NCBI GenBank assembly: GCA_039809385.1
Contig: JBDHUY010000001.1
Span: 96,001-160,000, forward strand
Direction of reading: 5' to 3'
Source: Candidatus Altimarinota bacterium
GTDB lineage: Bacteria > Patescibacteriota > Gracilibacteria > JBDHUY01
Length of the DNA: 64,000 nucleotides
Of this stretch, positions 30,317 through 45,086 are shown piece by piece; the stretch's first letter is position 1, and the number at the start of each line of letters is the position of its first letter. The position numbers and the translations under genes are program-made. The notes below the pieces were generated by a model that was given only the letters and a program-made list of their open reading frames with translations, was not told where the DNA came from and did no database searches.

Positions 30317-30412
30317 ATGAAAAACACATCCCTCCTTTCCGCCAACTTTTTTGGATACTACTTCTACTTCTTTTTTACGAAGAGGGGTTTTTGTTACGCG
30401 GATCAAGGATAG
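30317..30412 (+). CDS. Putative Phe/Tyr attenuator leader peptide (31 aa)
   Basis: MKNTSLLSANFFGYYFYFFFTKRGFCYADQG*; 9 of codons 11-20 are Phe/Tyr; upstream of aromatic amino acid genes. Confidence 0.85.
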   Translation: MKNTSLLSANFFGYYFYFFFTKRGFCYADQG

Positions 30413-30439
30413 ACATTAAAAACATACCGCAACAATAAG

Positions 30440-30478
30440 AAAAACCTCTCTTCACCACTTACGAAGAGAGGTTTTTTT
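30440..30478 (+). terminator. Attenuator terminator of Phe/Tyr leader
   Basis: AAAAACCTCTCTTC-loop-GAAGAGAGGTTTTTTT, 31 nt before pfkB ATG; 3' arm nearly duplicated (17/18) at 30375-30392 as antiterminator. Confidence 0.85.
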
Positions 30479-30509
30479 ATACTTTATTTCTGCCATAAAA
30501 ACATATATT

Positions 30510-31442
30510 ATGAAGGTTCTGGGAATAGGCGAAGTCGTCGCCGATAACGTTTACAGGGTCAACGACATGTCGCTCACCGATCAACAGCCCTGCTCACAGC
30601 AGGTACAACACTGCCTGGGCGGTCCGGTTCCGATCGCGCTTATACTTCTGGCCCGTCTGGGAGTGAACTGTACATTACTTGCCAGTATCGGGACAGACGA
30701 ACAGGGCGAAGACCTTAAAAAAGAACTCCGGCACGAACGCGTTCATCTCCTGACACAGCACCAACCCGCTACCAAATCGAATATTATTCTGGTGGATGAA
30801 AAGACGGGAAACCGCAAAAAGATGCGTGGGTCGGTGACCCATGCCCCTTTACGAAACCTGAAAACCGAGTTCCTTCGACAATTCGACGTCATCCTGATTG
30901 ATCGTCATGAGCCGCAAGCTTTGTACGAAGTTCTACAAAAAAAAGCTCCGCACACCCGGCTGGTCATCGACCCTTCAACCGAAATATCCGCCCTGACTCT
31001 GGACATGCTCAAACACGCCGAGTATCCGATTGTACCGATTGAAGGGGTTCTGAAAATAGACGGAGGCTCCACGCTCTTTGAAAAGATCAAGGCACTCTAT
31101 GCCATGAGCCGCAAAGAGATCATCGTTACCGCCGGCAGCCTGGGCACGATTCTCTACGACGGCAAAACTATCGAGATCATTCCCAGCATGGATATCCGTG
31201 CACAGGACACCAACGGGGCCGGCGATGTGTTCCGGGCCGGGGTTATTTACGGTGTTTTACGCAAATGGGATATCCGCAAAAGCATCAAAATGGGCAACGT
31301 GGTAGCCGCCCTGCAATGCTTAAAACCGGGCAACAGTACAGCCATTCCCACCAAACGGGAGATCATCCGCGCTGCAAAAAGCTTACGTCCCAAGCACATC
31401 GAGATTCGTCATCTGGAAGCATACTGTCAGGAGCTGGGATAG
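30510..31442 (+). CDS. PfkB/ribokinase-family carbohydrate kinase
   Basis: VLGIGE..AD, LGGPV..ALILLARLG, IIVTAGSLG, DTNGAGDVFRAG. Confidence 0.93.
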   Translation: MKVLGIGEVVADNVYRVNDMSLTDQQPCSQQVQHCLGGPVPIALILLARLGVNCTLLASIGTDEQGEDLKKELRHERVHLLTQHQPATKSNIILVDEKTGNRKKMRGSVTHAPLRNLKTEFLRQFDVILIDRHEPQALYEVLQKKAPHTRLVIDPSTEISALTLDMLKHAEYPIVPIEGVLKIDGGSTLFEKIKALYAMSRKEIIVTAGSLGTILYDGKTIEIIPSMDIRAQDTNGAGDVFRAGVIYGVLRKWDIRKSIKMGNVVAALQCLKPGNSTAIPTKREIIRAAKSLRPKHIEIRHLEAYCQELG

Positions 31443-31760
31443 CAAGCTATCAGCAAACAGCGGTCAGCTGACAGCGGGAACAGACAGGGAGCAAGCTATC
31501 GGCGAGCAGCGGTCAGTAGAAACTGTGAAATTGATAGAAACTTATTGAAATTGGTTGCCCTTCCTGCAGTCACTCTGACTCTGAGCGGAGCGAAGAGGAA
31601 GAGTCTCATACGTACTTCATGCATGTAGAACCAGGTAAACGGCACTATTTGAAATTTGGATTTGGACATTTGTCATTCTTTTGATATTTACATTCATGCA
31701 TACCTTTCCTCTATCTTTCTCATTATGGAGTGGCTGAAAAGTCTCCAAGACATTGTATCA

Positions 31761-31983
31761 GTCATTCCGGCCCCGAAGGGGAGCCTTGCTCTTGCCCGCC
31801 TGCCCCGCCTTCTGGCGTGGGGAATCCGGGTACTGGTACTACAGTATGAACAAGAGTGATGTTCACTGTTATTACCTGATAGAGAGGAATGAATCGTGAT
31901 ATTCTCTCCATGGAATTACACTTCAATGAGTGCCTTAAACAAAGCTCTGTGCGTGTACGGATGCTGGGCGGAGCCAGCATGAC
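31761..31983. repeat. GTCA...TGAC-type structured repeat, copy 1 (upstream of fba)
   Basis: GTCATTCCGGCC...GAAGGGGAGCC...GAATCCGGGTAC ... TACGGATGCTGG.CGG.GCCAGCATGAC; clearly homologous to 32966-33157. Confidence 0.8.
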
Positions 31984-32063
31984 AAGAAAAAAACACCAAT
32001 GTATATACTTTCCCCATACTTAATACTTACTACATCATACTTTATACTTTTCCCCTTCTCCCC

Positions 32064-32903
32064 ATGCTGATCGATGCAAAAATGCTTCTCTCTGAAGCCA
32101 AAAAACAAAAAAAGGCGATTGCCGCGCTCAATACCTCGAGCGTCGAATGTACCCAGGCCATTTTCGAGGCCGCCGCCGAGCTAAAGGCGCCCCTCATTGT
32201 TTCGACCTCGGAAGGCGAATCGAAGCATTTGTTACCCGAAGTTGCGATCAATTTGTGCCAGACTCTGTCAAAAATCCATGGAGTAGACTATGTCCTGCAC
32301 CTGGACCATGGGAAAGATATTCCTTATATTGCGAAGTGTCTTGAGGCCGGCTATACCTCGATTCATGTCGATTATTCCGAACTTCCGCTGGAGGAAAATA
32401 TCGCCAAGACCATGGAAGTGCGGACACTCACCGACCAGTATGGCGCACAACTGGAAGGCGAAGTTGGCATTATTCCCTATAACTACTACGAAGTCACCAA
32501 AGAGCTCGAAGTCACCGACCCCGAAACGGCCAAGCTCTATGTAGAAAAAACACAAGTCGATTCGCTGGCAGTCTCGATCGGCACCGAACACGGGAAGTTC
32601 AAACGGGTCAAAGAGTTGAAAATCGATGCTCTGCAAAAGTTGAATGAAGTTTTACCCGAGATGCCGTTTGTGCTGCACGGCGGCTCATTTTTACCCGACG
32701 AACAATATCTGCTGGCAATCCAAGACGGAATCGCTAAAATAAATATCAATGCCGAGATTCGCATGGCCTATAGCGAAACTTTGAAAAAGAATCTGGAAAA
32801 CAACCCCGATGAGTATGCTCCTTTTCGTCTGCTCAAGGGGGTCAAAGAGGCGATGAAGGACGTGGCGAAGAAGAAGATAGAACTGTTCTATCGTGGGCAA
32901 TAA
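32064..32903 (+). CDS. fba: Class II fructose/ketose-bisphosphate aldolase
   Basis: VLHLDHG, GYTSIHVD.S, EGEVG, VDSLAVSIGTEHG, VLHGGS, KININ. Confidence 0.93.
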   Translation: MLIDAKMLLSEAKKQKKAIAALNTSSVECTQAIFEAAAELKAPLIVSTSEGESKHLLPEVAINLCQTLSKIHGVDYVLHLDHGKDIPYIAKCLEAGYTSIHVDYSELPLEENIAKTMEVRTLTDQYGAQLEGEVGIIPYNYYEVTKELEVTDPETAKLYVEKTQVDSLAVSIGTEHGKFKRVKELKIDALQKLNEVLPEMPFVLHGGSFLPDEQYLLAIQDGIAKININAEIRMAYSETLKKNLENNPDEYAPFRLLKGVKEAMKDVAKKKIELFYRGQ

Positions 32904-32965
32904 AAAAACGGAGCCAATAGATTCATGTAAAAGGGTATCTGAGAAATTTTCAAGCCATGGGATCT

Positions 32966-33157
32966 GTCATTCCGGCCATGAAGGGGAGCCTTTGGCTCTT
33001 GCCTGCCTGTCCCGCCTTGGCGTGGAGAATCCGGGTACAGACAGTACAATTGTGAAGAAGAGTAGTGTGCACTTTACTACCTATCTGGAGTACCTCCTCA
33101 TTGAGTGCTTAAAACAAACTGCGTGCCTATACGGATGCTGGACGGGGCCAGCATGAC
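32966..33157. repeat. GTCA...TGAC-type structured repeat, copy 2 (downstream of fba)
   Basis: Same orientation and same termini as 31761-31983. Confidence 0.8.
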
Positions 33158-33383
33158 TGGGATGGGAAAAAAGAACGATCTATGTTTTTCAGACAGGCTC
33201 TTAGATACCTCTCTCTAAAATCCCAATTTCAAAATCCAAATGAAAAAAATAAGAAAAATTGCTTCACTTAAACTTTGACTTTTGAACTTTGAGATTTGAA
33301 CTTCTTTTGATATTTGAACTTTGTCATTTGATATTCAAGAATCCCATTCATAATTTATCATTCATCATTAATAATTCCCTTCT

Positions 33384-34139
33384 ATGCTCACCCGCGACGA
33401 ACTCCTCAAACACAAGCCTCTGATCATGGCCGGCCCGTGCGCCGTCGAATCGAAAGAGCAAATTACGAGCATTGCCGAAGCGCTCGCGCCAATGGGCGTG
33501 CACGTTTTACGATCGCAATTCTGGAAACCGCGTACATCAGCCGCCGACTTTCAGGGAGTAGGCGAAGCCGGGTTTGCCTGGGTGCGGGAAATTAAAGAAA
33601 AAACCGGGCTGCTGGTGGCTACAGAAATTGTCGATAAAGATCATATTCCGCTCACCCACGGCACTTCGGATATTCTATGGGTAGGCGCGCGGAACATGCA
33701 AAACTTCGAGCTCCTGAAAGCCTTGGCCAAAGATGACCGTCCGGTTATTCTCAAGCGCGGATTTATCAATACGATGAAAGAGTGGCTGGCTTCCGCCGAT
33801 TATATCGGACGCGAACGGGTAATCCTGTGCGAACGGGGCGTCCGGACCGGCGCCGATAGTATGCGCTTTACACTCGATATCAACAGCGCCCTGGTAGCCA
33901 AGCACGATCACGGCATGCCGGTCATCGCGGATCCTTCCCATACGACCGGACGACGGGATATGGTACCAGCCATGACACTTGCCAGTGTGGCGGCCGGACT
34001 CGACGGGATTGTGGTGGAAGTCCATAACGATCCGGAAAACGCGCTCTCGGACAGTAAGCAGCAGATCACCCCGGAAACGTTTAAAGACCTTTTGGATAAA
34101 GTACGGAAGGTGTATGCGATAGCCACAGGAATCGCTTAA
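33384..34139 (+). CDS. aroF: DAHP synthase type I-beta without N-terminal regulatory domain
   Basis: IMAGPCAVES, FWKPRTS, FQGVG, VGARNMQNFELL, ILKRG, LCERG, DPSH, VEVHNDPENALSD; 251 aa. Confidence 0.93.
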   Translation: MLTRDELLKHKPLIMAGPCAVESKEQITSIAEALAPMGVHVLRSQFWKPRTSAADFQGVGEAGFAWVREIKEKTGLLVATEIVDKDHIPLTHGTSDILWVGARNMQNFELLKALAKDDRPVILKRGFINTMKEWLASADYIGRERVILCERGVRTGADSMRFTLDINSALVAKHDHGMPVIADPSHTTGRRDMVPAMTLASVAAGLDGIVVEVHNDPENALSDSKQQITPETFKDLLDKVRKVYAIATGIA

Positions 34140-34349
34140 AGAAGAGAATACGCAAATTATGAATCATGATGGATGAATGGAATATCAAATGACAATCCAC
34201 CACGGCGGACAAATGCCAAAAGAATGACAAATATCCAAACCCAAATTTAAAAGAGTGCCGATTCAATGAATTTCTACGAATTTCAATAAATTTCCACGAT
34301 TTTCTCTCAACTTTGATATTTGATTTTTGAACTTTTATTCCCCAGCTAG

Positions 34350-34531
34350 GTCACTCCGGCTTGTCCGGAGTCCGGGAACAGCAACAAACACTTAAATGAG
34401 ATTTACGGCATCTCAGATCACGGGAGTACAGATGCGAGAAGCTTTATTTACGAGCCAATATGAGTATTGAAACGAACACATGCCAAACCCGGATCCTGGG
34501 CAAGCCAGGATCCTGGGCAAGCCAGGATGAC
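34350..34531. repeat. REP-like GTCA...TGAC element with internal 17-bp tandem duplication
   Basis: GTCACTCCGGCTTGTCCGGAGTCC ... (GGATCCTGGGCAAGCCA)x2 GGATGAC. Confidence 0.7.
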
Positions 34532-34688
34532 GGAGTCGAGGGAATATATTGGAACTTTTGAGATTCTAGGTAGATATTAGGATTTGGGACATGGGATTTT
34601 TTTGGATCTTTTTTCGTTTTAAACTTTGAATTTAATTTCAAACTTAGACATTTGGTATTTATTCCTTACCTCAACCTCCCTTACCTTC

Positions 34689-35762
34689 ATGTTAAAAAAT
34701 CCCGTGGTTGCCCGCGACCTGGCCGCACTCCGCGACACCATTACCGGACTGGACGAAACGCTCATTAGGACACTCGAGAAGCGTTTAAAAATTGCCGAGC
34801 AAATCGGGAAAATAAAGCGCCAAAAAGGACTCCCTTTGACCGATCCGGCGCGGGAAAAAGAGCTGTTGACCGTATTGAAAAAAAGCGCCAAAAGTTCACT
34901 GTTCAAATCACAGATTGAACCGCTTTATAAGGTCATCTTCGAGATGTCGAAAGCACAGCAGCGTGCTGTAAAAAAGCCATTCACGGCTCCTGTATCGATC
35001 GGCATTATCGGTTATGGACGCTTCGGGCAATTACTCGCAGATATTTTTCGCACCCACTGGCAAGGGGCCAGGATTCTTGTTTTTTCTAAGACGCAAGCAG
35101 CGGACCACGTGCTGTTTTTTCCTTTAGAAGCTATCTCGCAGTGCGATATCGTACTGCCTTGCGTGCCGATTTCGTCTCTGAAAAACACATTGCAAGAGAT
35201 AGCCCCGTTGTTAAAAGACGGAGCCACGGTGATCGACGTATGTTCGGTGAAGGTCGCACCGGTCGAATGGATGAAAAGAATCGTAAAGCAGAAGGCCGGC
35301 ATTATCGCGACGCATCCCATGTTCGGCCCCGACAGTACCCGTCAGGGCAAACAGTTAGCCGGGCTCAATATGATGCTCTATAACGTTTCGGCTAAAAAAA
35401 GCATATACGATCTGTGGAAAAGCTTTTGGGATTTTCTGGAAATGCATACGGTGGAAATCACCCCCCGCGAGCACGACCGGTTTGCGGCCTATACGATCAA
35501 CTATAACCATTTAATTGGTCGGATCGGCGAAAAAATCGGTATCCGGGAAACGCCGATCGATACCGCCGGCTTCAGTGTCATTTACCAAGCTCTCACCTAT
35601 GTAGTCAACGACTCGTGGCAATTGTTTCTTGATATGCAGCGCTATAATCCGTATGCGGGAGAAATGCGAAAAAAAATAGCAAGGGCGCTACGAGAGATTG
35701 AAGAAGAAATTAAGCAATCTGGGAGGAAGAAGCTCATAAGTAAAAATGCTACGGTCAATTGA
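34689..35762 (+). CDS. tyrA: Bifunctional chorismate mutase / prephenate(arogenate) dehydrogenase
   Basis: AroQ motif LRDTITGLD...R...IGKIK...DPARE; Rossmann GIIGYGRFG, DVCSVK, THPMFGP, EHDR; start at ATG 34689. Confidence 0.92.
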   Translation: MLKNPVVARDLAALRDTITGLDETLIRTLEKRLKIAEQIGKIKRQKGLPLTDPAREKELLTVLKKSAKSSLFKSQIEPLYKVIFEMSKAQQRAVKKPFTAPVSIGIIGYGRFGQLLADIFRTHWQGARILVFSKTQAADHVLFFPLEAISQCDIVLPCVPISSLKNTLQEIAPLLKDGATVIDVCSVKVAPVEWMKRIVKQKAGIIATHPMFGPDSTRQGKQLAGLNMMLYNVSAKKSIYDLWKSFWDFLEMHTVEITPREHDRFAAYTINYNHLIGRIGEKIGIRETPIDTAGFSVIYQALTYVVNDSWQLFLDMQRYNPYAGEMRKKIARALREIEEEIKQSGRKKLISKNATVN

Positions 35763-35852
35763 AATATCAAGACACAAACTTCAAATAAAATCCAAAAAAG
35801 TTCCAAGCATACCCTTGAAGATTTTTTACTTTCTTATTCTTACGTTTTTATT

Positions 35853-36044
35853 ATGAGTCCAGAACTACCTACACCTGATATTGAAATCAATACAGAAGAA
35901 ACTGGCAAACCAGGTACACAACCCCAACGAAAGCCGGATGATCAGGAAGTTCAAACTGGAACAACTGAAATTAAAAGAGCTGTTAACGATGTGGGAGGAT
36001 GGGGCGAAGATTCGCGAGCATTTGGAAGTGGGTTTGTGAATTAA
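35853..36044 (+). CDS. Small acidic hypothetical protein
   Basis: 63-aa ATG ORF co-oriented within the aromatic cluster. Confidence 0.4.
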   Translation: MSPELPTPDIEINTEETGKPGTQPQRKPDDQEVQTGTTEIKRAVNDVGGWGEDSRAFGSGFVN

Positions 36045-36353
36045 GGAAATGCGGTGGAAGAAGAGAGCATCCGTGACTCTTCGCTTCGCTCAGAGTGACG
36101 GTGTGCAGAGAATCGTGAACCTGTGCCTATGCTCAGGCTACTATGCTGCCCTGAACCCCCTACCCCCACCAATTCAGAGGGGGACGAATAAGGTAGGCCC
36201 TGTATCCAATTTTGAATTTTGCACTTTGAACTTTTCATTTCTGCCGTCCTGCTCTTCGCTGATCGCTGGCTGCTTACAGCCCGCAGGGGCAGACACACGG
36301 GTCTGCACCCTACAGATTTGACTTTTACCTTTTGACTTTTGACCTACCTTCCC

Positions 36354-37178
36354 ATGCTCCTCTCCATCCAGGGTAACCGCGGCTCGTTTCACCATATTGT
36401 CGCGCAGAATATTTTCGGGTCCGATATCGAACTGATAGAACGAGATACGTTTCGGGAGGTATTTGACGATACCAAAAACGGAAGTTGCGACTACGGGATC
36501 GTGGCGATCGAAAACTCGATTGCGGGTTCGATCCATGAAAACTACGACCACCTGGTACGATACGACCTTTTTATCCAAAGGGAGTACTATTTACGCATCG
36601 AACAACAACTGATCGCGCATCAAAACGTTACGACCGAGAACATCCGTCAGGTTTTTTCCCACCCGATGGCGATCAAACAATGTCGAGATTTTCTGGAGCT
36701 CTATCCAGAGTGGCAGATCGTCGAAGCCGCCGATACCGCCGGTAGTGTTGCGAAAATCAAAAACGAAGGTCGGCTCGATGCCGCGGCTATCGCAAGCGAC
36801 CTGGCAGCAACAATTCACGACATGAACATTGTGGCCCACAGCATTCAGACCGAAAAACAGAACTACACACGATTTTTCGTACTGGGCAAAGACCATACAT
36901 TCCTCCCGATCTCGGACAAAACTTCCCTGGTGTTTACGACCAAAAACGAGGCTGGCGCGCTGGTAAAAATTTTGAACCTCCTGGGCACTGCCAATATCAA
37001 CATGTCCAAACTCGAATCACGGCCCGTTGCTTCCAAGACCTGGGAATATTACTTCTACTTGGACGTGGAGAAAAACTTACTCGATCCGAACTGCGCCGAA
37101 CTATTAGCCCAGATACAAGACTACACGACATGGTTCAAAGTACTGGGAGTCTATCCGCGGGAACAGGGGGTGGTGTAG
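36354..37178 (+). CDS. pheA: Prephenate dehydratase with ACT domain
   Basis: QGNRGSF, AIENSIAGSI, SHPMAIKQC, NYTRFF, KTSLVF, INMSKLESRP, WEYYFYLD, LGVYP; start at ATG 36354. Confidence 0.95.
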   Translation: MLLSIQGNRGSFHHIVAQNIFGSDIELIERDTFREVFDDTKNGSCDYGIVAIENSIAGSIHENYDHLVRYDLFIQREYYLRIEQQLIAHQNVTTENIRQVFSHPMAIKQCRDFLELYPEWQIVEAADTAGSVAKIKNEGRLDAAAIASDLAATIHDMNIVAHSIQTEKQNYTRFFVLGKDHTFLPISDKTSLVFTTKNEAGALVKILNLLGTANINMSKLESRPVASKTWEYYFYLDVEKNLLDPNCAELLAQIQDYTTWFKVLGVYPREQGVV

Positions 37179-37394
37179 AGGAACAGTGAAAAGCGGTTAG
37201 CGATTAGCGGTCAGCAAAGACAGCGTGAAAAATGCAAAATGAAAAATTCAAAGTTGAAACACAGAATCTTTCTCCCGCTTCTATACTTTATCATGATTCA
37301 TACTTCACGCTTTATGCTCCCGGCCTAGCTATGGACTGTAAGCTGTTAGCCTCTGCCCTACTCCCCTCTCCTATCTCCCAACTCCTCCCTCTCT

Positions 37395-38576
37395 ATGTCT
37401 TCCTTTCCCCTACCCCACATAACACCCGAACCATCCGCGACAGTCACGATCAACTCGCTGGCAGCCGAGAAAAAAGCGCACGGAGAACTCGTCTATAATC
37501 TGGCTGCCGGCGAACCGGTTCTCTCTCCTCACCGAGGAGTCGTGGAGCAGGTGGAAGATGCGTTGAAAAAAGGCTATACGCTCTACCCGCCGGTGCAGGG
37601 AATCGGGCGTCTCATCGAACTGGCCCGCAACTGGATGAACGAGCAATACGGAAGCGACTTCTCCACCTTCGAAACGCTGGTCACGCCGGGAGGAAAGTTC
37701 GGGATATTTCTGCTGCTGCAGGCTTATTTACAACCCGGCAACGAAGTCATTATTCCGGCTCCTTACTGGGTTTCCTACACCGGCATGGTACGGTTGTTCG
37801 GGGGAAAAACCACCATTCTGGCAACCCGCCCGGAGCAAGACTGGAAATTTACGCCCCACGAACTGGAACAAGTTTGTACCGAAAAAAGTAAGATACTGCT
37901 CCTCAATAACGGTGCCAATCCCACCGGCGTGCTGTATAGCAAAGAAGAACTGGAGGCCATTTTAACTGTAGCACAGAGAAAAAACCTGATCGTTATTTCC
38001 GACGAAGTATACAGTGAACTGGTCTACGATCGCGCACGCCCCTATGTCTCGTGTGCGAGTTTTCCGGAATACCGCGACCATCTGTTTGTCATTCAAAGTT
38101 GCTCAAAGCACTTTGCTATGACCGGGTGGCGGGTTGGATTCGTATTCGGGAATGAAAAAATTCTAAAGATCCTGACCATGCTGGTGAGCCAAAGTACCAG
38201 CGGCACCGGGACGATCGACCAGTATGCCGCGATCGGAGCTTTTGAGCACGCCGCAGAAATTCAGCAGGGGGTCCGTTCTGCCATGCAACAACGACGGGAT
38301 CTATTCGTCCGTGGATTAGAAAAGATCCTGGAGCAAACTCTGCCCATGCCGCCGGCGGCTCTGTATAGCTTTGTCCCCATTTCGTTATTCGGATACCGAG
38401 ACAATTCCTCTGCGGCTTTTTGCGAAGAACTTCTGAGAGAAACCAATATCGCGGCTGTTCCGGGGATTGCGTTCGGCCAGGAAGGGTATGTACGCTTTGC
38501 CTTCGGCGAAAACGAAGAAGTGCTGCGTGGAGCATTACAGGCTTTGGAGAAACGAAGAATGAATTTATGTGGATAG
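37395..38576 (+). CDS. Class I/II PLP aminotransferase (aspartate/aromatic type)
   Basis: LAAGEP, PAPYWVSY, NNGANPTG, ISDEVY, SCSKHFAMTGWRVG, VPGIAFG..GYVRF. Confidence 0.93.
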   Translation: MSSFPLPHITPEPSATVTINSLAAEKKAHGELVYNLAAGEPVLSPHRGVVEQVEDALKKGYTLYPPVQGIGRLIELARNWMNEQYGSDFSTFETLVTPGGKFGIFLLLQAYLQPGNEVIIPAPYWVSYTGMVRLFGGKTTILATRPEQDWKFTPHELEQVCTEKSKILLLNNGANPTGVLYSKEELEAILTVAQRKNLIVISDEVYSELVYDRARPYVSCASFPEYRDHLFVIQSCSKHFAMTGWRVGFVFGNEKILKILTMLVSQSTSGTGTIDQYAAIGAFEHAAEIQQGVRSAMQQRRDLFVRGLEKILEQTLPMPPAALYSFVPISLFGYRDNSSAAFCEELLRETNIAAVPGIAFGQEGYVRFAFGENEEVLRGALQALEKRRMNLCG

Positions 38577-38735
38577 TATACCCACAATATACTCATGTTT
38601 GCGAAAAATCCTTCCTCGATTTTGTATTGCGAACCGCTGAACGCTAATCGCTAAGAGATTCTCCTTTTTCGCATAATCTATTCTTTTCAGGATAGAAGTA
38701 CATTTCTGCTATAATGAAAGAAATGACTCCTCGCT

Positions 38736-40544
38736 ATGAACTCCGAAAAACTGCAGCAAAGATTTCCGGATATCTACCAAACCTTTTTTCAGCAGGCTCC
38801 GCTGGTAGCTGCTGCTCCTTTTTCCATGACCTGGATGACCGACAGCAGCATTCGTTTTCGGGGTGCGGTGATTCGTCAGAAAATTCCGCTGAAGGGATAT
38901 GTGGGAGTGGAAGAAACAGGACAAGCGGGTGAAATTTCGCTGGGTACGGTAACCTGGTATGAATCCGGACAGGACCGGTTCTCAACTCCGGCGCCTTTAT
39001 CGTCGATCTTTGCTCAGACCAAGGAAGTAGCGAAGTATATGGAGTCTCATTTTTCCGTAAAGCTAGGCTCGCGGGGTATTCGCTTCCATGCTCTGCTGGA
39101 AATGGCGATTGACCGGGGGATGAGTTGTCATGCCACTCTGACCGCCTTAATAGCGTTTCTGCTCTGTTATAGGACGAACCAGGTCAGCTCCGAGCAAATC
39201 AAACAATGGAGGGACGTGTCGGTGGAAGAACTGCTGAAAAATGACACATATGGTTTCACGAAGGTAGCCGAACACGGCCGTAATATGGATCACATTACCA
39301 AATACGGCAATACCTGGGGTACCGGGGTGATCTCCAGTCTGGTTCCTTCCAGGTTTCCTTTTGTCACGTTTCCTCAGCAAAAACCGGAAGTAAACTTGGA
39401 AGAGATCATGAAAGAAAAGATGGACGTACTCTCCTACCGCCTCAACGAACTATTTCCCCAGCTGCCTCGAAAAGTATCGTGGCCTATCGACTATGCGATC
39501 ATCTTTTCGGGGAAACTCTTGAATTTGGAAAATTCTCTGCAGAAAACTCTGACAAAAAGCAAAGAACTAGAAGATATACAAGCTCATTTACGGCTCATAA
39601 AAGCAGAACAGGTAGATAAGACCGCGTTATTTACTATGAAAGTTAAACAAACAAACAGCTTTGAAAATACGTTTTTAGAGACGAACGCAATCGTATCGCT
39701 CATGCTGGTATCACAACTTGCAAAAATGATGTTAAAAAGCCACGATGAACGTGAAGCAGAAATGTTTATTGAATATATGAAAAAACGCCACAGTGCCGCC
39801 ACAGTGATGGATCCGGTATCGCCCTACATTACCAAATTTCTTGCCCGTTTAAATAGTCAATTGGCCTCCGGAAAACAGTATAACAACTATGCTACATTTT
39901 GCTTTGACGATATTACTTTAGGAGGAAGCATTGGATTCGTAAGCTTAAAAGGGATACAACGGGATATATTCTCAAATACGGCCAACAAGATTGTCAAAGA
40001 ATTTCCAGTCTCATCAATCGATTATATGAGTTGGGAGGACGGCAGCTGTGATGATGGTGTAGAGATATTGCAAGATATTGAAAAGAAAACCTTTTCTCGT
40101 TACATACCCCCGGAAAGCATAATCATGAGTAGATTTGAAGGAAAAACCTCCCCTCAGCGCCTCCTTACTTCCCATAGTGCCGTAAACATTTCAGAAACAA
40201 CGGGTCTGGTCTTGGACACCATACAAGAAAAAATATTCATTAACGGTGTAGCTCCTACGAGTAAAGAACTTCACTCACACAAAGTAACAATTCAGCTTCT
40301 ACGATTTCTGCTTTCGTCGAAGAATCATGAAATTAGCAATAAAGACCTGCCTCGCTCGGCATATTCTCTCAGCAAAAACGAGATGGAAGGGAAAATTGTT
40401 CGCCCCTTTAACTCACTAATAAAAACCAAACTTGGAAAAGACGAAAACTTCCTCATATGCATTGGAAATAATACAGATTTTTGTGTATATATGAATATGA
40501 ATACTATCAATATAAATCTATATCAAAAACTGTTTGAGTTTTAA
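38736..40544 (+). CDS. GHMP-kinase-fold protein (degenerate motifs) with possible C-terminal winged-helix domain
   Basis: APFSMTWMTDSSIRFRGAVIRQKIPLKGYVGV resembles GHMP motif I; MAIDRGMSCHATL resembles PxxxGLxSSA; C-terminal LVLDT..KIFING...LLRFLL...ISNKDL resembles OmpR-type wHTH. Confidence 0.55.
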   Translation: MNSEKLQQRFPDIYQTFFQQAPLVAAAPFSMTWMTDSSIRFRGAVIRQKIPLKGYVGVEETGQAGEISLGTVTWYESGQDRFSTPAPLSSIFAQTKEVAKYMESHFSVKLGSRGIRFHALLEMAIDRGMSCHATLTALIAFLLCYRTNQVSSEQIKQWRDVSVEELLKNDTYGFTKVAEHGRNMDHITKYGNTWGTGVISSLVPSRFPFVTFPQQKPEVNLEEIMKEKMDVLSYRLNELFPQLPRKVSWPIDYAIIFSGKLLNLENSLQKTLTKSKELEDIQAHLRLIKAEQVDKTALFTMKVKQTNSFENTFLETNAIVSLMLVSQLAKMMLKSHDEREAEMFIEYMKKRHSAATVMDPVSPYITKFLARLNSQLASGKQYNNYATFCFDDITLGGSIGFVSLKGIQRDIFSNTANKIVKEFPVSSIDYMSWEDGSCDDGVEILQDIEKKTFSRYIPPESIIMSRFEGKTSPQRLLTSHSAVNISETTGLVLDTIQEKIFINGVAPTSKELHSHKVTIQLLRFLLSSKNHEISNKDLPRSAYSLSKNEMEGKIVRPFNSLIKTKLGKDENFLICIGNNTDFCVYMNMNTININLYQKLFEF

Positions 40545-40628
40545 CAGAAAAAAGCTCGTGAAGGAAATAGGAATCATTTTTTGACGTATGGTATCTTAAA
40601 CGTAAATACAGGTTCTTGGGTATTAATA

Positions 40629-41675
40629 TCAGTTACTTTGCTTATCAATCAATCTTTTGATAGCAACTATATTTTCTTGCACTTCTTGAGGGTTAAATTG
40701 AGTTACAGCAATCCCAAATTGCTCATAATTATATTGAGATCTGTGCATTTGCCAAATGAAATATTCATACAATTTTATTAATTCCTCTGTTTCACTATAA
40801 GACAACTTAAAATTATCTCCTCTTTTCTCATCAAGTAAAAAAAGGAGCTTTTGTGATACACTTCTTGGTAAGTTTTGAATTAACAGGGAGGCTGTTTCGT
40901 ATTCGGGTCCAGAAGTAATGAGTTGGCCGTGCTTGGTACAAATTGATCGTAGTAATTTTATAAAATCCCGTATTACCATGAGTTGTATGGTCCTATTTGG
41001 ACCATATTTAAAAGAAGACAGGTACTGAGCCCCGTTTTTAGAGTAGTAAGATTCACCTTTTTCAGGATCATAATGACGTAATTCTTCTCCTTTACTTATT
41101 TGTTTACCAGAGGGCAGTATTTTGTAATACTCAGTAAAATAACTCTTTACTTGTTTTAAAACGCTTTTTCCATCCGAACCAACCAATTCCCCGAGCATTT
41201 TTCTTCGAGCCTCATCTAAAATTTGATTATTACCAGCTAGAACAGACGCATCTAAGATACGTGACGGCCATTTTTGACCAGTTTCAAGATATTCAGATAG
41301 GCGTTCCTTATTAATATCTTTCTTCTCAAAGCCTTTAAAAAAAACACCGTGCTGGGATTCAGTGCAACTTCTAATTTCCTGCTCAATCGTTGTAATCAAA
41401 TCGTTTACCGCAGATATGCTTTTTGCCAATACAATTACCTCTAACTTTGAATCTGGCCCTTTTTCAAATCTCCCGTCACTACCAGTAGCCAATAATACTA
41501 TATCATCTGTCTTATCGGTTACGCCTATAGTATGAAAAAAGTTGGTTACTAATTGCTGTAGTTCCAAGTTGTATTTTTGCAAATACTCAAAATATTTTTG
41601 AGGATTCTTTATATCGGGATTATCGATCTCTGGCAAAGTAGGACAAATCATTTTTGGACTTATAGCGTAGGACAT
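40629..41675 (-). CDS. GlnD/GlnE/DUF294-like nucleotidyltransferase-fold protein
   Basis: LLATGSDGRFEKGPDSKLEV (cf. GSxGRxExxxxSDLD), RILDASVLAGN, FKYGPNRTIQ, ELIKLYEYF..QMHR. Confidence 0.65.
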   Translation of the reverse strand: MSYAISPKMICPTLPEIDNPDIKNPQKYFEYLQKYNLELQQLVTNFFHTIGVTDKTDDIVLLATGSDGRFEKGPDSKLEVIVLAKSISAVNDLITTIEQEIRSCTESQHGVFFKGFEKKDINKERLSEYLETGQKWPSRILDASVLAGNNQILDEARRKMLGELVGSDGKSVLKQVKSYFTEYYKILPSGKQISKGEELRHYDPEKGESYYSKNGAQYLSSFKYGPNRTIQLMVIRDFIKLLRSICTKHGQLITSGPEYETASLLIQNLPRSVSQKLLFLLDEKRGDNFKLSYSETEELIKLYEYFIWQMHRSQYNYEQFGIAVTQFNPQEVQENIVAIKRLIDKQSN

Positions 41676-41738
41676 ACTATTAATATATTTATATAATATT
41701 CTTCACAAAAAGCAACAAAAAAACCAAGAATTTTATCC

Positions 41739-41773
41739 AAAAAAACCTCTTCTGTAGGCGAAGAGGTTTTTTT
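41739..41773 (-). terminator. Attenuator terminator of Val/Ile/Leu leader
   Basis: Minus strand AAAAAAACCTCTTC-GCCTACA-GAAGAGGTTTTTTT, 63 nt upstream of the start of the NTase-like gene. Confidence 0.8.
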
Positions 41774-41801
41774 ATATAACATGCTGAAGGAAATCTCTCC
41801 G

Positions 41802-41900
41802 CTATGGTAAGAGGTTAATAATGACTACTCGAAGTACAGACCGCACTGGAGAGTTCGTTTTTGAAGGAAATCGTTGTAGTGTCTTATCCAGTGTAAACAT
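41802..41900 (-). CDS. Putative branched-chain amino acid attenuator leader peptide (32 aa)
   Basis: MFTLDKTLQRFPSKTNSPVRSVLRVVIINLLP*; 9 of codons 19-31 are Val/Ile/Leu; promoter-like TTGACT-N16-TAGAAT upstream. Confidence 0.65.
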   Translation of the reverse strand: MFTLDKTLQRFPSKTNSPVRSVLRVVIINLLP

Positions 41901-41958
41901 AAGAGATTGTATAAATACTGGATCTATTCTAATTAGAGGGGAATAAAAGTCAAATCTA

Positions 41959-42904
41959 CGTTCTCTTTCAGATCAAATGCGACATAGCGAATTGATGAGG
42001 GGTGAGCATATTAAGGGATAAATGGGGTCGTTCGTGGTGGTAGTAATGGAGGTAGTCGTTGATCTTCTGCTGCAGCCAGGGCAGGTCTGATTTTTTGTAT
42101 TTGATATGACCCACACATTCTTTCCTCAGGATTCCGTTAAATCGTTCGATAAATGCCTGTTCATTCTTTTTGTACGGTCGTGCTGTTCTGAGCCGTATCC
42201 CCAATCCTCTTACTCTTCTTTGCCACTCGGCTTTGAACTCCGGTCCGCCATCCCGTTGCGCGTGTTCCATGTGTCCATAAAACTTCAACTGTTCAATAAA
42301 TGCTTCTTCTCCGGCTTTTGCTGTTAATCGGTCTTTCAAGATTACCGTTCCTTCTCTGGTACAAATATCAATCGACGTAAACGCATAAATATCTCCCAAA
42401 TCCACCGTATCAAATTGTAATGCTTCCCGAGCTCTGCTTGCTTTCAATACCGTTTTACCACGTACTACATTCTTCTTCCACTTACTGCGTAAAACATATT
42501 TCTCATTCAGAATTCGATAGATCGTGCTCCCCGAGACTTTTGTCCCATATTCTTTCTTCAAGAAATATTGAATCTTTTCTCCACAGCATTCGTGCCGCTC
42601 TTCCCGAATCTTCCAGATGTACCGTTTGGTTATCGGATCGGTTTCAGTTCTTTTTCGTTTCCCTTGCTTGGCCCGGGTAAAATCTCTCAAAAATATTTTG
42701 ATCCCTTTCTTCTTCATTCCATTGATCCATCGATACACCGTGGCTCGGTGTACTCCTATCTGCTTTGGTATCTGCTCTGGTGATATTTCGTTCTTGTACA
42801 AATTCCAGCATACATACATCTTCTCTATTGTTTTCATGTCCATAGGATTAGTAGCTTCCTTCTACTATTCTACCCTATGTCGCATTTTTAAAGAGAATAC
42901 AACG
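41959..42904 (-). mobile_element. IS481-like insertion sequence
   Basis: Imperfect terminal IRs (CGTT...AAATGCGACATAG / CTATGTCGCATTT...AACG); 5-bp direct repeat ATCTA at 41954-41958 and 42905-42909. Confidence 0.8.
41968..42843 (-). CDS. DDE (rve) transposase with N-terminal HTH
   Basis: GVHRATVYRW, QFDTV, QRDGGPEF, FIERFNGILRKE, YHHERPHLSL...TP. Confidence 0.93.
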   Translation of the reverse strand: MDMKTIEKMYVCWNLYKNEISPEQIPKQIGVHRATVYRWINGMKKKGIKIFLRDFTRAKQGKRKRTETDPITKRYIWKIREERHECCGEKIQYFLKKEYGTKVSGSTIYRILNEKYVLRSKWKKNVVRGKTVLKASRAREALQFDTVDLGDIYAFTSIDICTREGTVILKDRLTAKAGEEAFIEQLKFYGHMEHAQRDGGPEFKAEWQRRVRGLGIRLRTARPYKKNEQAFIERFNGILRKECVGHIKYKKSDLPWLQQKINDYLHYYHHERPHLSLNMLTPHQFAMSHLI

Positions 42905-42925
42905 ATCTATTATTTTTTATTAGAA

Positions 42926-44116
42926 TTACTCCGCGCTATTCTGAAGATTATTATATACATACTCTAACATTGAAGCTACGAGCGAATTGGTAACAATTGT
43001 ATCCCGCAGTCGCTGTAGCTTCTGATGGACAAGTTCGCACACAAGCTCGTTTACCTTTTGAAACGTAACATAACGCTGCCATTCGATAATTTCCTGAGGA
43101 GTGGCATTCGTAATGCTGAGGTGCTCCCCCACTTGAATCGGAAATCCTCTCTTGCCGTGAATTACCTGAGCCAGATTCCCCTGGACGGAAGCCAAATATA
43201 ACGCTCGTTTGGCATGATCGGTGATCATAGCCTTACTTCCATTCACAGCCACAATCGTACCTTTTTCTTCGCTAAAAGCACTCGTACGCTTGGCGACACA
43301 CAGCAACGTACCTCTTGCATCCCGTACCGCGATACAACATCCTATCTGAAATTGCTCTTCATCCAACTCGACCCGCAGGTTACCAAATTCACAACTTTCG
43401 GTAATAACTCCCAATCGTAAGGGACTTTTTTCAATTTCCTCCTCTATCTTTTCGGTATCAATGGGGTTGCCAAGTTGTTCGAAACCATATCCTCTGGCGA
43501 TACCAGCTCCGGCCGGAGCGAATTTGCTCGCTCCGTCAAACACGTCACCCCCACGTTTTTCCGTAAGTCTCAGTCCGATCAGTTTTTCCAAAGAGATTTC
43601 ATACACCTTTGCCTCGGCAAGTTTACCATGACCGTGAAACTCCGGCACCCGCATGTACCAACGAGCCGGACCGACAAGTATCAATCCGGATGGGTATTGA
43701 ATCATAACCCGTTTGCTTCCAACGTTGGAATCGTTCTCGTCATTTTGACCCACATGCGGATCGATAGTGATCACAAAAATAGCTTTACTACTCGATATTC
43801 TATCTTCAACGTATGCCGAAAGAGTGTGAGCAGCAGCTGTGAGGTTAAAGTTCTCTACTTTGTTGGTACGAATGGGAATAGGATTATCCGCCAAGATATA
43901 TTCCATGATCGCAGCCTGTTGGTTGAGCGATTCAGAATTGAGGTCGGCAATCGTAATAATCTGACAGGACAATTGCTCACCAGATTCTTTGAAATCAGGA
44001 AGAACCGTGCCTTTATTGGGGAGATTGGAGCGAGAATTCGCATTTGGATATACCGAAGTTTCGGTCTGAACATCGGGAGTATCAGAAAAAGAAGTTTGGT
44101 TCTTTAGAGTAGACAT
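42926..44116 (-). CDS. Divergent SAM hydrolase / SAM-dependent halogenase (DUF62) family protein
   Basis: IFVITIDPHVG..GSKR (cf. VVDPGVG..R), LVGP (cf. GPDNG), VFDGASKFAPAGAGIARG (cf. TFHGRDIFAPAAA.LA.G), CEFGNL (cf. D.FGN), LYLASVQGN (cf. LEIA.N.GN). Confidence 0.75.
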   Translation of the reverse strand: MSTLKNQTSFSDTPDVQTETSVYPNANSRSNLPNKGTVLPDFKESGEQLSCQIITIADLNSESLNQQAAIMEYILADNPIPIRTNKVENFNLTAAAHTLSAYVEDRISSSKAIFVITIDPHVGQNDENDSNVGSKRVMIQYPSGLILVGPARWYMRVPEFHGHGKLAEAKVYEISLEKLIGLRLTEKRGGDVFDGASKFAPAGAGIARGYGFEQLGNPIDTEKIEEEIEKSPLRLGVITESCEFGNLRVELDEEQFQIGCCIAVRDARGTLLCVAKRTSAFSEEKGTIVAVNGSKAMITDHAKRALYLASVQGNLAQVIHGKRGFPIQVGEHLSITNATPQEIIEWQRYVTFQKVNELVCELVHQKLQRLRDTIVTNSLVASMLEYVYNNLQNSAE

Positions 44117-44139
44117 ACCAGAAAAAGAAATGAGATAAT

Positions 44140-44170
44140 AAAAAACAGCCTCCGAAATGGTCGAAGGCTG
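44140..44170 (-). terminator. Attenuator terminator of Met leader
   Basis: Minus strand CAGCCTTCGA-CCAT-TTCGGAGGCTG-TTTTTT, 23 nt upstream of the DUF62 start; 3' arm TTCGGAGGC exactly repeated in the leader (44207-44215). Confidence 0.85.
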
Positions 44171-44195
44171 CTTGTTTTAAAGGGGATAACGCACT

Positions 44196-44315
44196 TTAAA
44201 CCATTTGCCTCCGAAGCAGACGCATCATCATCATTATCGCCATCATCATGTACCCGGTACGACAAATGTTGTTAACCGAAACTTCCTGTGATGGAATGTT
44301 TGAATACCGGGACAT
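44196..44315 (-). CDS. Putative methionine attenuator leader peptide (39 aa)
   Basis: MSRYSNIPSQEVSVNNICRTGYMMMAIMMMMRLLRRQMV*; 7 Met in 9 consecutive codons. Confidence 0.82.
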   Translation of the reverse strand: MSRYSNIPSQEVSVNNICRTGYMMMAIMMMMRLLRRQMV

Positions 44316-44339
44316 AGAAAGAAAAAAGATTTTTACATC

Positions 44340-44367
44340 ATCATAATCGTCAAAAAAAGTTTGTCAA
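44340..44367 (-). promoter_or_regulatory. Sigma70-type promoter of Met leader
   Basis: Minus strand TTGACA-N16-TATGAT, 24 nt upstream of the leader ATG. Confidence 0.65.
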
Positions 44368-44660: not shown

Positions 44661-44735
44661 GCCGGAGTAGCTCAGTGGTAGAGCAATGCTTTCGTAAAGC
44701 AGTGGTCGTGGGTTCAACTCCCATCTCCGGCTCCA
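44661..44735 (+). tRNA. tRNA-Thr(CGT)
   Basis: GCCGGAGTAGCTCAGTGGTAGAGCAATGCTTTCGTAAAGCAGTGGTCGTGGGTTCAACTCCCATCTCCGGCTCCA; loop TTCGTAA; one mismatch at top of anticodon stem. Confidence 0.9.
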
Positions 44736-45086
44736 GGGGGAAATAGTATAAAGTATCTGGTATTAGGTATCTAGTATAGTGCCGAATAAGTAAACCACGT
44801 GCGGAAACATGAGTCCGGGGTTTTTACAGATAAGGACGTTTGACTCTTGACCTCCAAGACCTGTCCATTCACCCATTCCCGAGTCCTCATGCCCCTGCTG
44901 TTGGCTGTAAGCTGTCAGCTCTGTGTTTTGGCTAATCGCCACTACCCGCCTGTCACCGCTGTAAGCTGTTCGCTGACCGCTGAACGCCGCCCGCCTGATT
45001 TGTCCCTTGCCTTTTACCTGCTCTTTTTCTATAGTAGAACACGCTTATCAAACGACCTCTTATTTTCTATTTATCTAAAACCTGTT

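Follow-up and report, generated by a model that had tools for sequence, protein, structure and literature searches.

Candidate Phyla Radiation (CPR) bacteria are uncultured, with few recognisable regulators and many hypothetical genes, and a sensor legible in the DNA itself would be a rare handle on their regulation. Whether such sensors exist is the question raised by a 64,000-nucleotide (nt) stretch of contig JBDHUY010000001.1 from Candidatus Altimarinota bacterium (hereafter the window), in which three short open reading frames (sORFs), here called L1, L2 and L3, are each followed by a hairpin and a gene. An initial annotation had described these as attenuators that respond to phenylalanine/tyrosine, valine/isoleucine/leucine and methionine, respectively. 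All three sets of sORF, hairpin and gene were indeed present, and our analysis suggests that two of them are probably ribosome-mediated transcription attenuators, L1 sensing Phe/Tyr and L3 sensing Met, and that L2 is most likely an ordinary terminator. We propose that the amino acid specificity, the set of controlled genes and the host lineage are new, and that the mechanism itself would be of the classical trpL/pheL/hisL type.

Two leaders with codon runs beyond chance

L1 (30317..30412, + strand; MKNTSLLSANFFGYYFYFFFTKRGFCYADQG, 31 amino acids (aa)) carries at codons 11-20 (30347-30376) the control run FFGYYFYFFF, in which nine out of ten codons specify phenylalanine or tyrosine (F/Y). The run is followed by a segment (segment 2; 30378..30393, + strand) that was recognised in folds as a near-copy of the 3' arm of an intrinsic terminator, and then by that terminator with its long U tract (30440..30483, + strand; stem 30440-30476, -18.1 kcal/mol), the hairpin of which lies 33 nt upstream of the first gene at 30510. 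The layout of L3 (44315..44196, - strand; MSRYSNIPSQEVSVNNICRTGYMMMAIMMMMRLLRRQMV, 39 aa) is similar: Met codons 23-25 and 28-31 (44249-44223) amount to seven Met in nine codons, a candidate antiterminator segment TTCGGAGGCA (44206..44215, - strand), again a near-copy of the terminator 3' arm, lies inside the end of the leader ORF, and an intrinsic terminator with U tract (44135..44173, - strand; stem 44173-44143, -18.6 kcal/mol) precedes the gene at 44116 by 26 nt. Both terminators are located between divergently transcribed genes and can therefore not be the 3' ends of upstream genes. The genes downstream match the control codons, in the case of L1 chorismate mutase/prephenate dehydrogenase, prephenate dehydratase and an aminotransferase, and in the case of L3 a member of the SAM_HAT (S-adenosylmethionine (SAM) hydrolase) family; for L2 there is no such match.

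The codon runs were compared with chance in the whole genome to which the window belongs (G000; 1.87 Mb, 95% complete). Crude gene calling gave 1532 ORFs and 1055 intergenic regions with 6405 intergenic sORFs, for each of which the best 10-codon window was tabulated, and all 1055 regions were dinucleotide-shuffled 20 times as a control. A window with seven Met occurred once (L3), the next best having four, and the shuffles gave maxima of 3-4 and none with five or more. Likewise, nine F/Y occurred once (L1), with seven as the next best, and the shuffles contained 0-1 sORF with at least eight (maximum 8). Windows with at least eight Ile, Leu or Val (I/L/V), the type to which L2 belongs, were found in 23 real sORFs versus 7-22 per shuffle. 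When the 262 sORFs that end beside a terminator at most 150 nt upstream of a gene were ranked by binomial probability, L3 came first (P 3.6e-11) and L1 second (P 2.4e-8), with L2 in 20th place (P 2.2e-4). Given the shuffle counts and this ranking, chance does not account for the codon runs of L1 and L3, which far exceed it, and it does account for that of L2. As regards codon runs the initial annotation holds for L1 and L3, whose patterns were not reached in any of the 20 shuffles, and fails for L2, whose codon bias is as common in shuffled DNA. In G000 each of the three leader regions matches only itself, so that none of them is a repeat.

Alternative RNA pairings and the proposed mechanism

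In the classical model of attenuation the control codons themselves form segment 1, as they do in L1. The F/Y codon stretch of this leader (CUUCUACUUCUU) is paired in the free fold with the next segment, GAAGAGGGG (pairing 1:2), and in transcripts cut before the terminator 3' arm GAAGAGGGG forms a 14-base-pair (bp) antiterminator with the terminator 5' arm (2:3). Under an imposed ribosome footprint this antiterminator was kept with the A site at codons 2-17 and lost at codons 18-29; a ribosome over segment 2 abolishes it. The duplex (-20.7 kcal/mol, z = -5.2) was equalled in 0 of 500 shuffles and ranks third among 183 genome-wide. For L3 an 8-bp antiterminator, UCGGAGGC:GCCUUCGA, is predicted, which in the footprint folds is disrupted once the A site passes codon 31.

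By analogy with trp/phe/his attenuation we propose the following course of events. Transcription would start upstream of the short leader ORF, and a ribosome that runs to the leader end would cover or free the segments in such a way as to let the terminator hairpin fold, so that RNA polymerase would halt short of the gene. When the cognate charged tRNA is scarce, the ribosome would stall on the control codons, the downstream segment would pair with the terminator 5' arm as an antiterminator, and read-through would result. L1 would in this manner control the chorismate mutase/prephenate dehydrogenase, the prephenate dehydratase, the aminotransferase, a gene of the DAHP-synthase family and two sugar-phosphate enzymes, and L3 would control the divergent SAM_HAT-family enzyme. 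The leader-terminator units measure about 200 nt or less and could be tested directly in a reporter.

Upstream of L3 we found a promoter-like sequence, TTGACA-16-TATGAT (44340..44367, - strand), that matches the consensus at 11 of 12 positions and is a consensus match only; no such site was found upstream of L1 at the stringency used for L2 and L3 (10-11 of 12). A mini-ORF, ATGATGATGTAA (MMM*; 44345-44334, - strand), is situated 19 nt upstream of the Met leader, and since it overlaps the promoter-like -10 hexamer the transcript probably starts there or further downstream.

Related leaders of the F/Y type

Fourteen loci were obtained when metagenome contigs were searched with the TyrA-like protein, and in two of these (L055 and L057) a leader heads a long operon; the upstream DNA of seven others was read and contained no leader, and the rest were too short. 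The L055 leader (MKHTSAANFYFYFGNL) precedes a first ORF (1058-2350, 430 aa) that is aroA-like by size and place only. The L057 leader (MKLPQQAYFFYFWNL) precedes aroA (PF00275), the first gene of a 12-gene operon: aroA, a HAD hydrolase, aroK, aroQ, aroE, DAHP synthase, aroB, aroC, prephenate dehydratase, prephenate dehydrogenase, chorismate mutase and an aminotransferase. Among the five closest homologues of the L057 AroA in 301 genomes of the GTDB class of G000 (49-56% identity) four have a leader directly upstream, in each case with the aroA homologue as first gene: G207 (MNNPSKTYGYFFYNFSHLKA), G286 (MHMQHSVNTFGYYFWNFNNVKA), G037 (MNNLNTNSSFYFFFA) and G231 (MVHTWFFSGFYFFAQQRGL); the fifth, in G237, is without a leader. 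In all six loci, L055 and L057 included, the leader is accompanied by a terminator. The other 25 aroA loci that were fetched were covered by an automatic screen, from which no further leader was taken up. The N-termini of the leaders are similar (MKNTS..SANFF vs MKHTSAANFY). The closest relative of the PheA protein (49% identity), in G054, is encoded by a solitary gene at which no leader was seen.

The antiterminators of 14 leaders were compared by duplex energy with 500 shuffles per leader. At most 3 of the 500 shuffles did as well in six out of seven F/Y leaders and in three out of six Met leaders. The antiterminator segment was always found at the end of the leader ORF, its start ranging from 32 nt upstream to 2 nt downstream of the stop codon's first base, and the terminator sequences vary from locus to locus.

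Met-run leaders in other genomes

Four matches were obtained with a profile of the 396-aa family of the L3 gene in 401 class genomes (G000, G127, G071 and G345), and Pfam PF01887 in 401 genomes of the phylum added G418, G513, G522, G549 and G745. With two metagenome-assembled genome (MAG) records of Candidatus Peregrinibacteria this made eleven SAM_HAT-family loci, the one in the window included. A Met-run leader and a terminator precede the gene in six of the eleven: G000 (...GYMMMAIMMMMRLLRRQMV), G127 (...AIMFMMMRPPGR), G071 (MKLLLSLLMQMMMHLVRGYCRV), G522, which belongs to another class (MKLGVYMMAMDSA), and the two MAG records L076 (MQISFAKSEQTNMMMSMMMLSQRRFEFVA) and L077 (MKITLALQIAAKNMMDMMMPMMFFMRRLG). 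The G549 locus was unreadable, the contig ending 103 nt upstream of the gene.

In a scan of the complete 1.49-Mb genome G207 the top intergenic sORF was MNTSAGHNQVNAQTSTMMMAMMMRFFGQRLMRA, which has a promoter-like site and a terminator and precedes a gene for homocysteine S-methyltransferase; the sole other amino acid leader recognised there was the F/Y leader described above. The strict pattern ATGATGATG-N3-6-ATGATGATG was present in 37 of 241 class genomes, versus 8 for the reversed control pattern. The 30 pattern loci that were returned comprised six in long reading frames, ten sORFs without and 14 with a terminator, and ten of these 14 (G000, G207, G145, G166, G187, G141, G134, G140, G070 and G163) had the full architecture, i.e. 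a Met run within an sORF no longer than 45 codons when measured from the ATG closest to the run, and a terminator 18-37 nt past the stop (in G145 a further-upstream in-frame ATG would give 72 codons). In eight pattern leaders from other genomes the first downstream ORF starts 28-129 nt after the stop.

The genes behind these leaders are of several kinds. In G166 it is homoserine O-succinyltransferase (MetA; PF04204); in G145 the ORF leaves the contig after 51 residues, the first 50 of which are identical to the G166 enzyme; in G140 it is again homocysteine S-methyltransferase. The leaders in G187, G141, G134, G070 and G163 precede genes without a family (L199 1623-2717, L207 1631-2731, L216 1577-3019 and, on the - strand, L215 410-1396 and L208 1038-1364), three of which showed no relation to SAM_HAT, homocysteine methyltransferase or each other by hhalign or BLASTP. 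From their position these five genes are candidates for methionine-related functions, and they thereby gain a function label that can be tested. A methionine- and threonine-rich sORF in G195 (L209, 1480-1596) upstream of an MsrB (SelR) gene (1674-2048) was kept as borderline because its strong hairpin follows only 7 nt after the stop; it may also belong to the Met regulon, in a more compact arrangement. Similar MT-rich sORFs before genes for SLH-domain proteins (L210 and L211) were not counted as leaders.

In total, Met-run leaders were found in 15 genomes or records of the class or phylum, this one and 14 others, and F/Y leaders in six other loci. The suggestion of the initial annotation that such leaders flag gene function is borne out, the Met leaders standing before MetA, homocysteine methyltransferase and SAM-hydrolase-family genes. 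In the 13 leaders that were tabulated the distance from stop to terminator is 21-48 nt and that from terminator to gene 1-68 nt.

ATG and CAT being reverse complements, the Met run can also be read as a histidine leader on the + strand: the mirror of L3 is a His-rich sORF (44205-44291, + strand; MPPKQTHHHHYRHHHV...) with seven His in ten codons, and scans for His leaders will therefore also catch Met leaders, read from the wrong strand, and vice versa. That L3 is really a His leader for + strand genes is nevertheless something to which we attach next to no credence: on that strand the hairpin is upstream of the sORF instead of between sORF and gene, the next features are a tRNA-Thr at 44661 and secDF, and at 14 out of 14 related loci the run reads as Met on the strand that encodes the gene behind it, the terminator separating the two.

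A more general alternative is that the hairpins are regulated or constitutive terminators that are read not by a translating ribosome but, for example, by an RNA-binding protein or a metabolite-binding RNA, in which case the codon runs would be incidental. It could draw on the ATG repeats as a possible binding site for protein or RNA, on the weakness of the Met antiterminator in three of the six loci tested and on the lack of a Shine-Dalgarno sequence in L1, L2 and L3. The last feature is normal in this genome, which hardly uses such sites: they occur upstream of 4.6% of 987 genes, more rarely than in a control window (7.9%), and the 20 nt before the start codons are G-poor and U/A-rich. Translation initiation in G000 does not rely on Shine-Dalgarno pairing. 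In addition, only two tRNAs passed the gathering thresholds in an Rfam scan of the whole window, and between 30000 and 45000 no leader, SAM riboswitch or T-box family matched at the gathering threshold or at E<=10; Phe_leader (RF01859) scored 25.2 bits at best, its gathering score being 55, and this on the opposite strand. With the stop only 18-48 nt before the terminator there is no conserved sequence or fold of the size of an aptamer, and what is conserved over 15 Met and seven F/Y loci is the in-frame codon run, its location within a short ORF and its distance from the terminator. The Met runs, moreover, precede four different Met-related enzyme families. We therefore regard a metabolite- or protein-read terminator as very improbable, and retain ribosome-mediated attenuation at L1 and L3 as the preferred reading.

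The genes behind L1 and L3

On the + strand behind L1 the following genes were assigned with Pfam/NCBIfam: a PfkB-family kinase (30510-31442), a class II (ketose-bisphosphate) aldolase (32064-32903), a DAHP-synthase family member (33384-34139; TIGR01361, 301 bits, above the cut-off), a fusion of chorismate mutase and prephenate dehydrogenase (34626-35762), a prephenate dehydratase with ACT domain (36339-37178; NF008865, above the cut-off) and a class I/II aminotransferase (37395-38576). By this gene content the Phe/Tyr-rich leader heads genes of both the Tyr and the Phe branch, and we infer that the genes in 30510..38576 are co-transcribed. The CPR cells concerned appear to regulate the few amino acid steps that they have retained. 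A 602-aa ORF (38736-40544, + strand) without Pfam or NCBIfam family comes directly after the aminotransferase gene and may close the unit under F/Y control.

The gaps within the operon (31443-32063, 32904-33383, 34140-34625, 35763-36338 and 37179-37394) are unusually long and consist of dispersed repeats, with 46, 16, 17, 10 and 6 blastn matches (E <=1e-4, including the self-hit), respectively, over many contigs; their appearance is that of small interspersed elements. Around 31570-31950 the DNA contigs assembled from public runs are broken and variable.

The gene behind L3 (42926..44116, - strand) encodes a 396-aa protein that Pfam, profile and alignment results indicate to be a divergent member of the SAM_HAT (DUF62/SAM hydrolase) family. 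PF01887 is precomputed for nine out of nine members of its family, one of which is named S-adenosylmethionine hydrolase by the source, and a profile of the family matched Pyrococcus PH0463 (1wu8/2wr8) with E = 1.3e-5. The alignment with relatives of canonical length spans both domains, and the motifs VDPxVG, GP, F.G, GN and GS match. Its family has domain, profile match and motifs in common with the DUF62 (R)-SAM hydrolases, and the protein differs from them in its length, greater by about 130 residues, in its extensions at both the N- and the C-terminus, in having SDL in place of TDFG and in having DVFDG(L/A) in place of FHGRD; the G071 protein, of canonical length, reads FDGRD.

Characterised SAM_HAT relatives split SAM into adenosine (or 5'-halo-adenosine) and L-methionine, and to our knowledge all characterised members of the superfamily release L-methionine from SAM. 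In G000 we found MetK, and no MetE or MetH-type methyltransferase domains in this 95% complete genome. We therefore read the enzyme as a possible starvation-induced valve that would return the SAM pool, or an inactive epimer of SAM, to methionine, which points to a physiological role of SAM-hydrolase-family enzymes as a methionine source under starvation. For archaeal members, a 2025 preprint reports hydrolysis of the inactive (R)-epimer of SAM as a salvage step (10.1101/2025.08.29.672840).

Taken beyond this one locus, the AUG runs would represent a class of Met-tRNA-sensing attenuators that defines a lineage-wide Met regulon in Peregrinibacteria-like CPR bacteria, with SAM-hydrolase-family genes, homocysteine S-methyltransferase, MetA and possibly MsrB as members, that takes the place of the SAM riboswitches, T-boxes or MetJ of other bacteria. 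The divergent SAM hydrolase would act as a valve, induced by starvation, through which a methionine auxotroph turns SAM back into methionine, and the leaders would mark at least five family-less CPR genes as methionine-related. On balance we lean slightly towards this wider proposal, with clearly less assurance than for the two attenuators in the window.

Observations that weigh against the attenuator reading

Several results speak against L1 and L3 as working attenuators of the genes named above, or against the functions assigned to those genes. At the RNA level, no RNA run was found that contains this DNA, the minimum free energy structures of the full-length leaders always keep the terminator, so that the switch must be kinetic, and the L3 antiterminator is no better than shuffles (53/500), as is the antiterminator in two of the five other Met leaders. 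At the level of the loci, no Met leader is present at four of the eleven SAM_HAT-family loci (G345, G418, G513 and G745). For the L3 gene, the 396-aa protein on its own scores 26.0 bits with SAM_HAT_N against a cut-off of 26.3; DVFDG(L/A) replaces TFHGRD in all members of the 396-aa subfamily, which changes to Asp the His that we take to be the canonical active-site residue of SAM_HAT enzymes; and the AlphaFold2 model is unusable, with a mean confidence (pLDDT) of 50.9. With a score near the cut-off, an altered FHGRD motif and no usable model, the reaction of the protein is one that we infer. For the L1 operon, the dispersed repeats in the large gaps may break co-transcription, and 3-dehydroquinate (DHQ) synthase, shikimate dehydrogenase and chorismate synthase were not found in G000 by Pfam family search. 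AroA, AroK and AroQ were not found either by tblastn with the L057 proteins. Either the cell lacks the mid-pathway steps that would feed the enzymes of the operon, or these are taken over by the PfkB kinase, the class II aldolase and the uncharacterised genes.

The third candidate

L2 (41900..41802, - strand; MFTLDKTLQRFPSKTNSPVRSVLRVVIINLLP, 32 aa) contains the stretch VLRVVIINLL and is followed by a palindromic hairpin (41770..41742, - strand; -13.9 kcal/mol), which lies 66 nt upstream of the gene at 41675 and is bidirectional, A and U tracts flanking it on both sides. That gene (40629..41675, - strand) encodes a 348-aa protein without Pfam or NCBIfam family, for which similarity to DUF294/NTP_transf_2 nucleotidyltransferases was indicated by language-model features only, as a lead. 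Between the SAM_HAT-family gene and L2 an insertion sequence (IS) is located (41958..42899, - strand, ends approximate), with an rve-type transposase of 291 aa (42843-41968, - strand; Pfam) and perfect 13-nt inverted repeats (41975-41987 and 42875-42887); end fragments or partial copies of it occur on contigs C7 and C2 and elsewhere on C1. Without the IS, the L2 hairpin would be the first terminator after the SAM_HAT-family gene, at a distance of about 213 nt. In the fragmentary DNA contigs from activated sludge and wastewater no IS-free joint was found, and no problem of coverage that bears on the leaders.

That all three leaders are working attenuators, with L2 sensing Ile/Leu/Val or the general speed of translation and controlling the nucleotidyltransferase-like gene, is a reading we consider unlikely. 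Eight of ten codons in its run are I/L/V, and I/L/V-rich sORFs are equally frequent in shuffled intergenic DNA; L2 is only 20th of the 262 terminator-adjacent sORFs. It has a predicted 8-bp antiterminator, AGCGGAGAGA:CCTCTTCGC, which overlaps the leader stop codon and was equalled in only 2 of 200 and 1 of 500 shuffles, and in four accepted leaders, too, the 5' arm begins 1-2 nt into or past the stop codon. A promoter-like site, TTGACT-16-TAGAAT (41953-41926, 10 of 12), is present, of which the -35 hexamer is supplied by the end of the IS. The gene behind L2 has no link to branched-chain amino acids, and no leader was found at its homologues in any of the four loci with a readable start (two further loci were without a start). 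No genes of the ketol-acid reductoisomerase or isopropylmalate-dehydrogenase type (IlvC, LeuB-type) were found in G000, nor did the whole-genome scans of G000 and G207 recover an I/L/V leader; leaders for His, Trp or Thr were not prominent in these scans either. A Thr-rich sORF before the glycine-tRNA ligase gene on contig C14 was dropped as a further leader, lacking a proper U-tract terminator. The hairpin may alternatively end the upstream transcription unit. L2 is most likely an ordinary bidirectional terminator beside a chance sORF, and probably not the Val/Ile/Leu sensor of the initial annotation.

The stem of the L2 terminator is shared uniquely with that of L1, AACCTCT...AGAGGTT hairpins occurring exactly twice in the 1.87-Mb genome, so the two terminators are as nearly identical as had been described. 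The idea that was attached to this similarity, a modular cassette with swapped sensor codons, is not supported: the F/Y and the Met leaders each have old relatives of their own and unrelated terminators, and a stem common to L1 and L2 is therefore no evidence for a cassette. It may reflect a local copy of a terminator.

Comparison with known systems

As in pheL-pheA, trpL and hisL of the Proteobacteria, codons for the end-product amino acid are clustered in a short leader ORF, and alternative pairings (1:2, 2:3, 3:4), here predicted, are followed by an intrinsic terminator ahead of the biosynthetic genes. L1 has no sequence or model similarity to Phe_leader RF01859, and in contrast to pheL its type mixes Phe and Tyr (and Trp in relatives) and heads operons with tyrA-type and pheA-type genes; moreover, the host is a CPR bacterium that initiates without Shine-Dalgarno sites. 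The Met leaders resemble the S-box (SAM-I and other SAM) riboswitches and the Met T-boxes in that transcription of Met-related genes would end prematurely within the 5' leader. They differ in the sensor, which would be 3-7 AUG codons in an sORF in place of an aptamer or a tRNA-binding leader, and in the signal, which would be the charging of Met-tRNA, whereas it is SAM for the S-box.

Leaders for His and Leu have reportedly been described in Firmicutes. Leader-peptide attenuation is a textbook mechanism. Methionine is listed as S-box regulated, no RNA element for methionine having been found in Actinobacteria (PMC1262725); where one bacterial group has a T-box or riboswitch, another may have a leader peptide instead, and leader-peptide systems are given as known in Proteobacteria and Actinobacteria, with a His leader added for Firmicutes (PMC2965389); and polycysteine attenuators of leaderless sORFs are described in mycobacteria (bioRxiv 10.1101/834739). 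The mycobacterial Cys leaders and the Firmicutes His and Leu leaders are thus similar in that they sense outside the Proteobacteria, Cys being also outside the classical set, and they differ from the leaders found here in amino acids, lineages and targets, none of them involving Met or a CPR organism. In the full-text literature, the coverage of which excludes most subscription journals, we found neither a published methionine leader peptide nor a leader-peptide attenuator in CPR/Patescibacteria.

Lineage of the source genome and further observations

The assignment of the genome to a CPR lineage, which had been suggested initially, is supported by its sequence context: genomes in its GTDB class measure 0.7-2.0 Mb, and several in-frame TGA codons are present in many of the PheA matches listed for the class, consistent with recoding (G000 itself reads with code 11). 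The 396-aa subfamily had two matches only in species-representative genomes, both titled Candidatus Peregrinibacteria bacterium, a name that NCBI places under Candidatus Peregrinibacteriota. The ribosomal protein S2 of G000 is only 44-46% identical to that of these two MAGs.

Outside the window, G000 contains two 5'-untranslated-region (UTR) terminators, C11:28537-28580 and C13:53226-53261, with upstream segments complementary to the 5' arm (z = -6.6 and -6.1, 0/200 shuffles) and no amino acid run seen; these may be further attenuators or the expression platforms of riboswitches. In the window itself, a 910-aa protein (44847-47579, + strand) combines SecD/SecF domains with two inserted PPIC-type peptidyl-prolyl isomerase domains, which is an unusual fusion.

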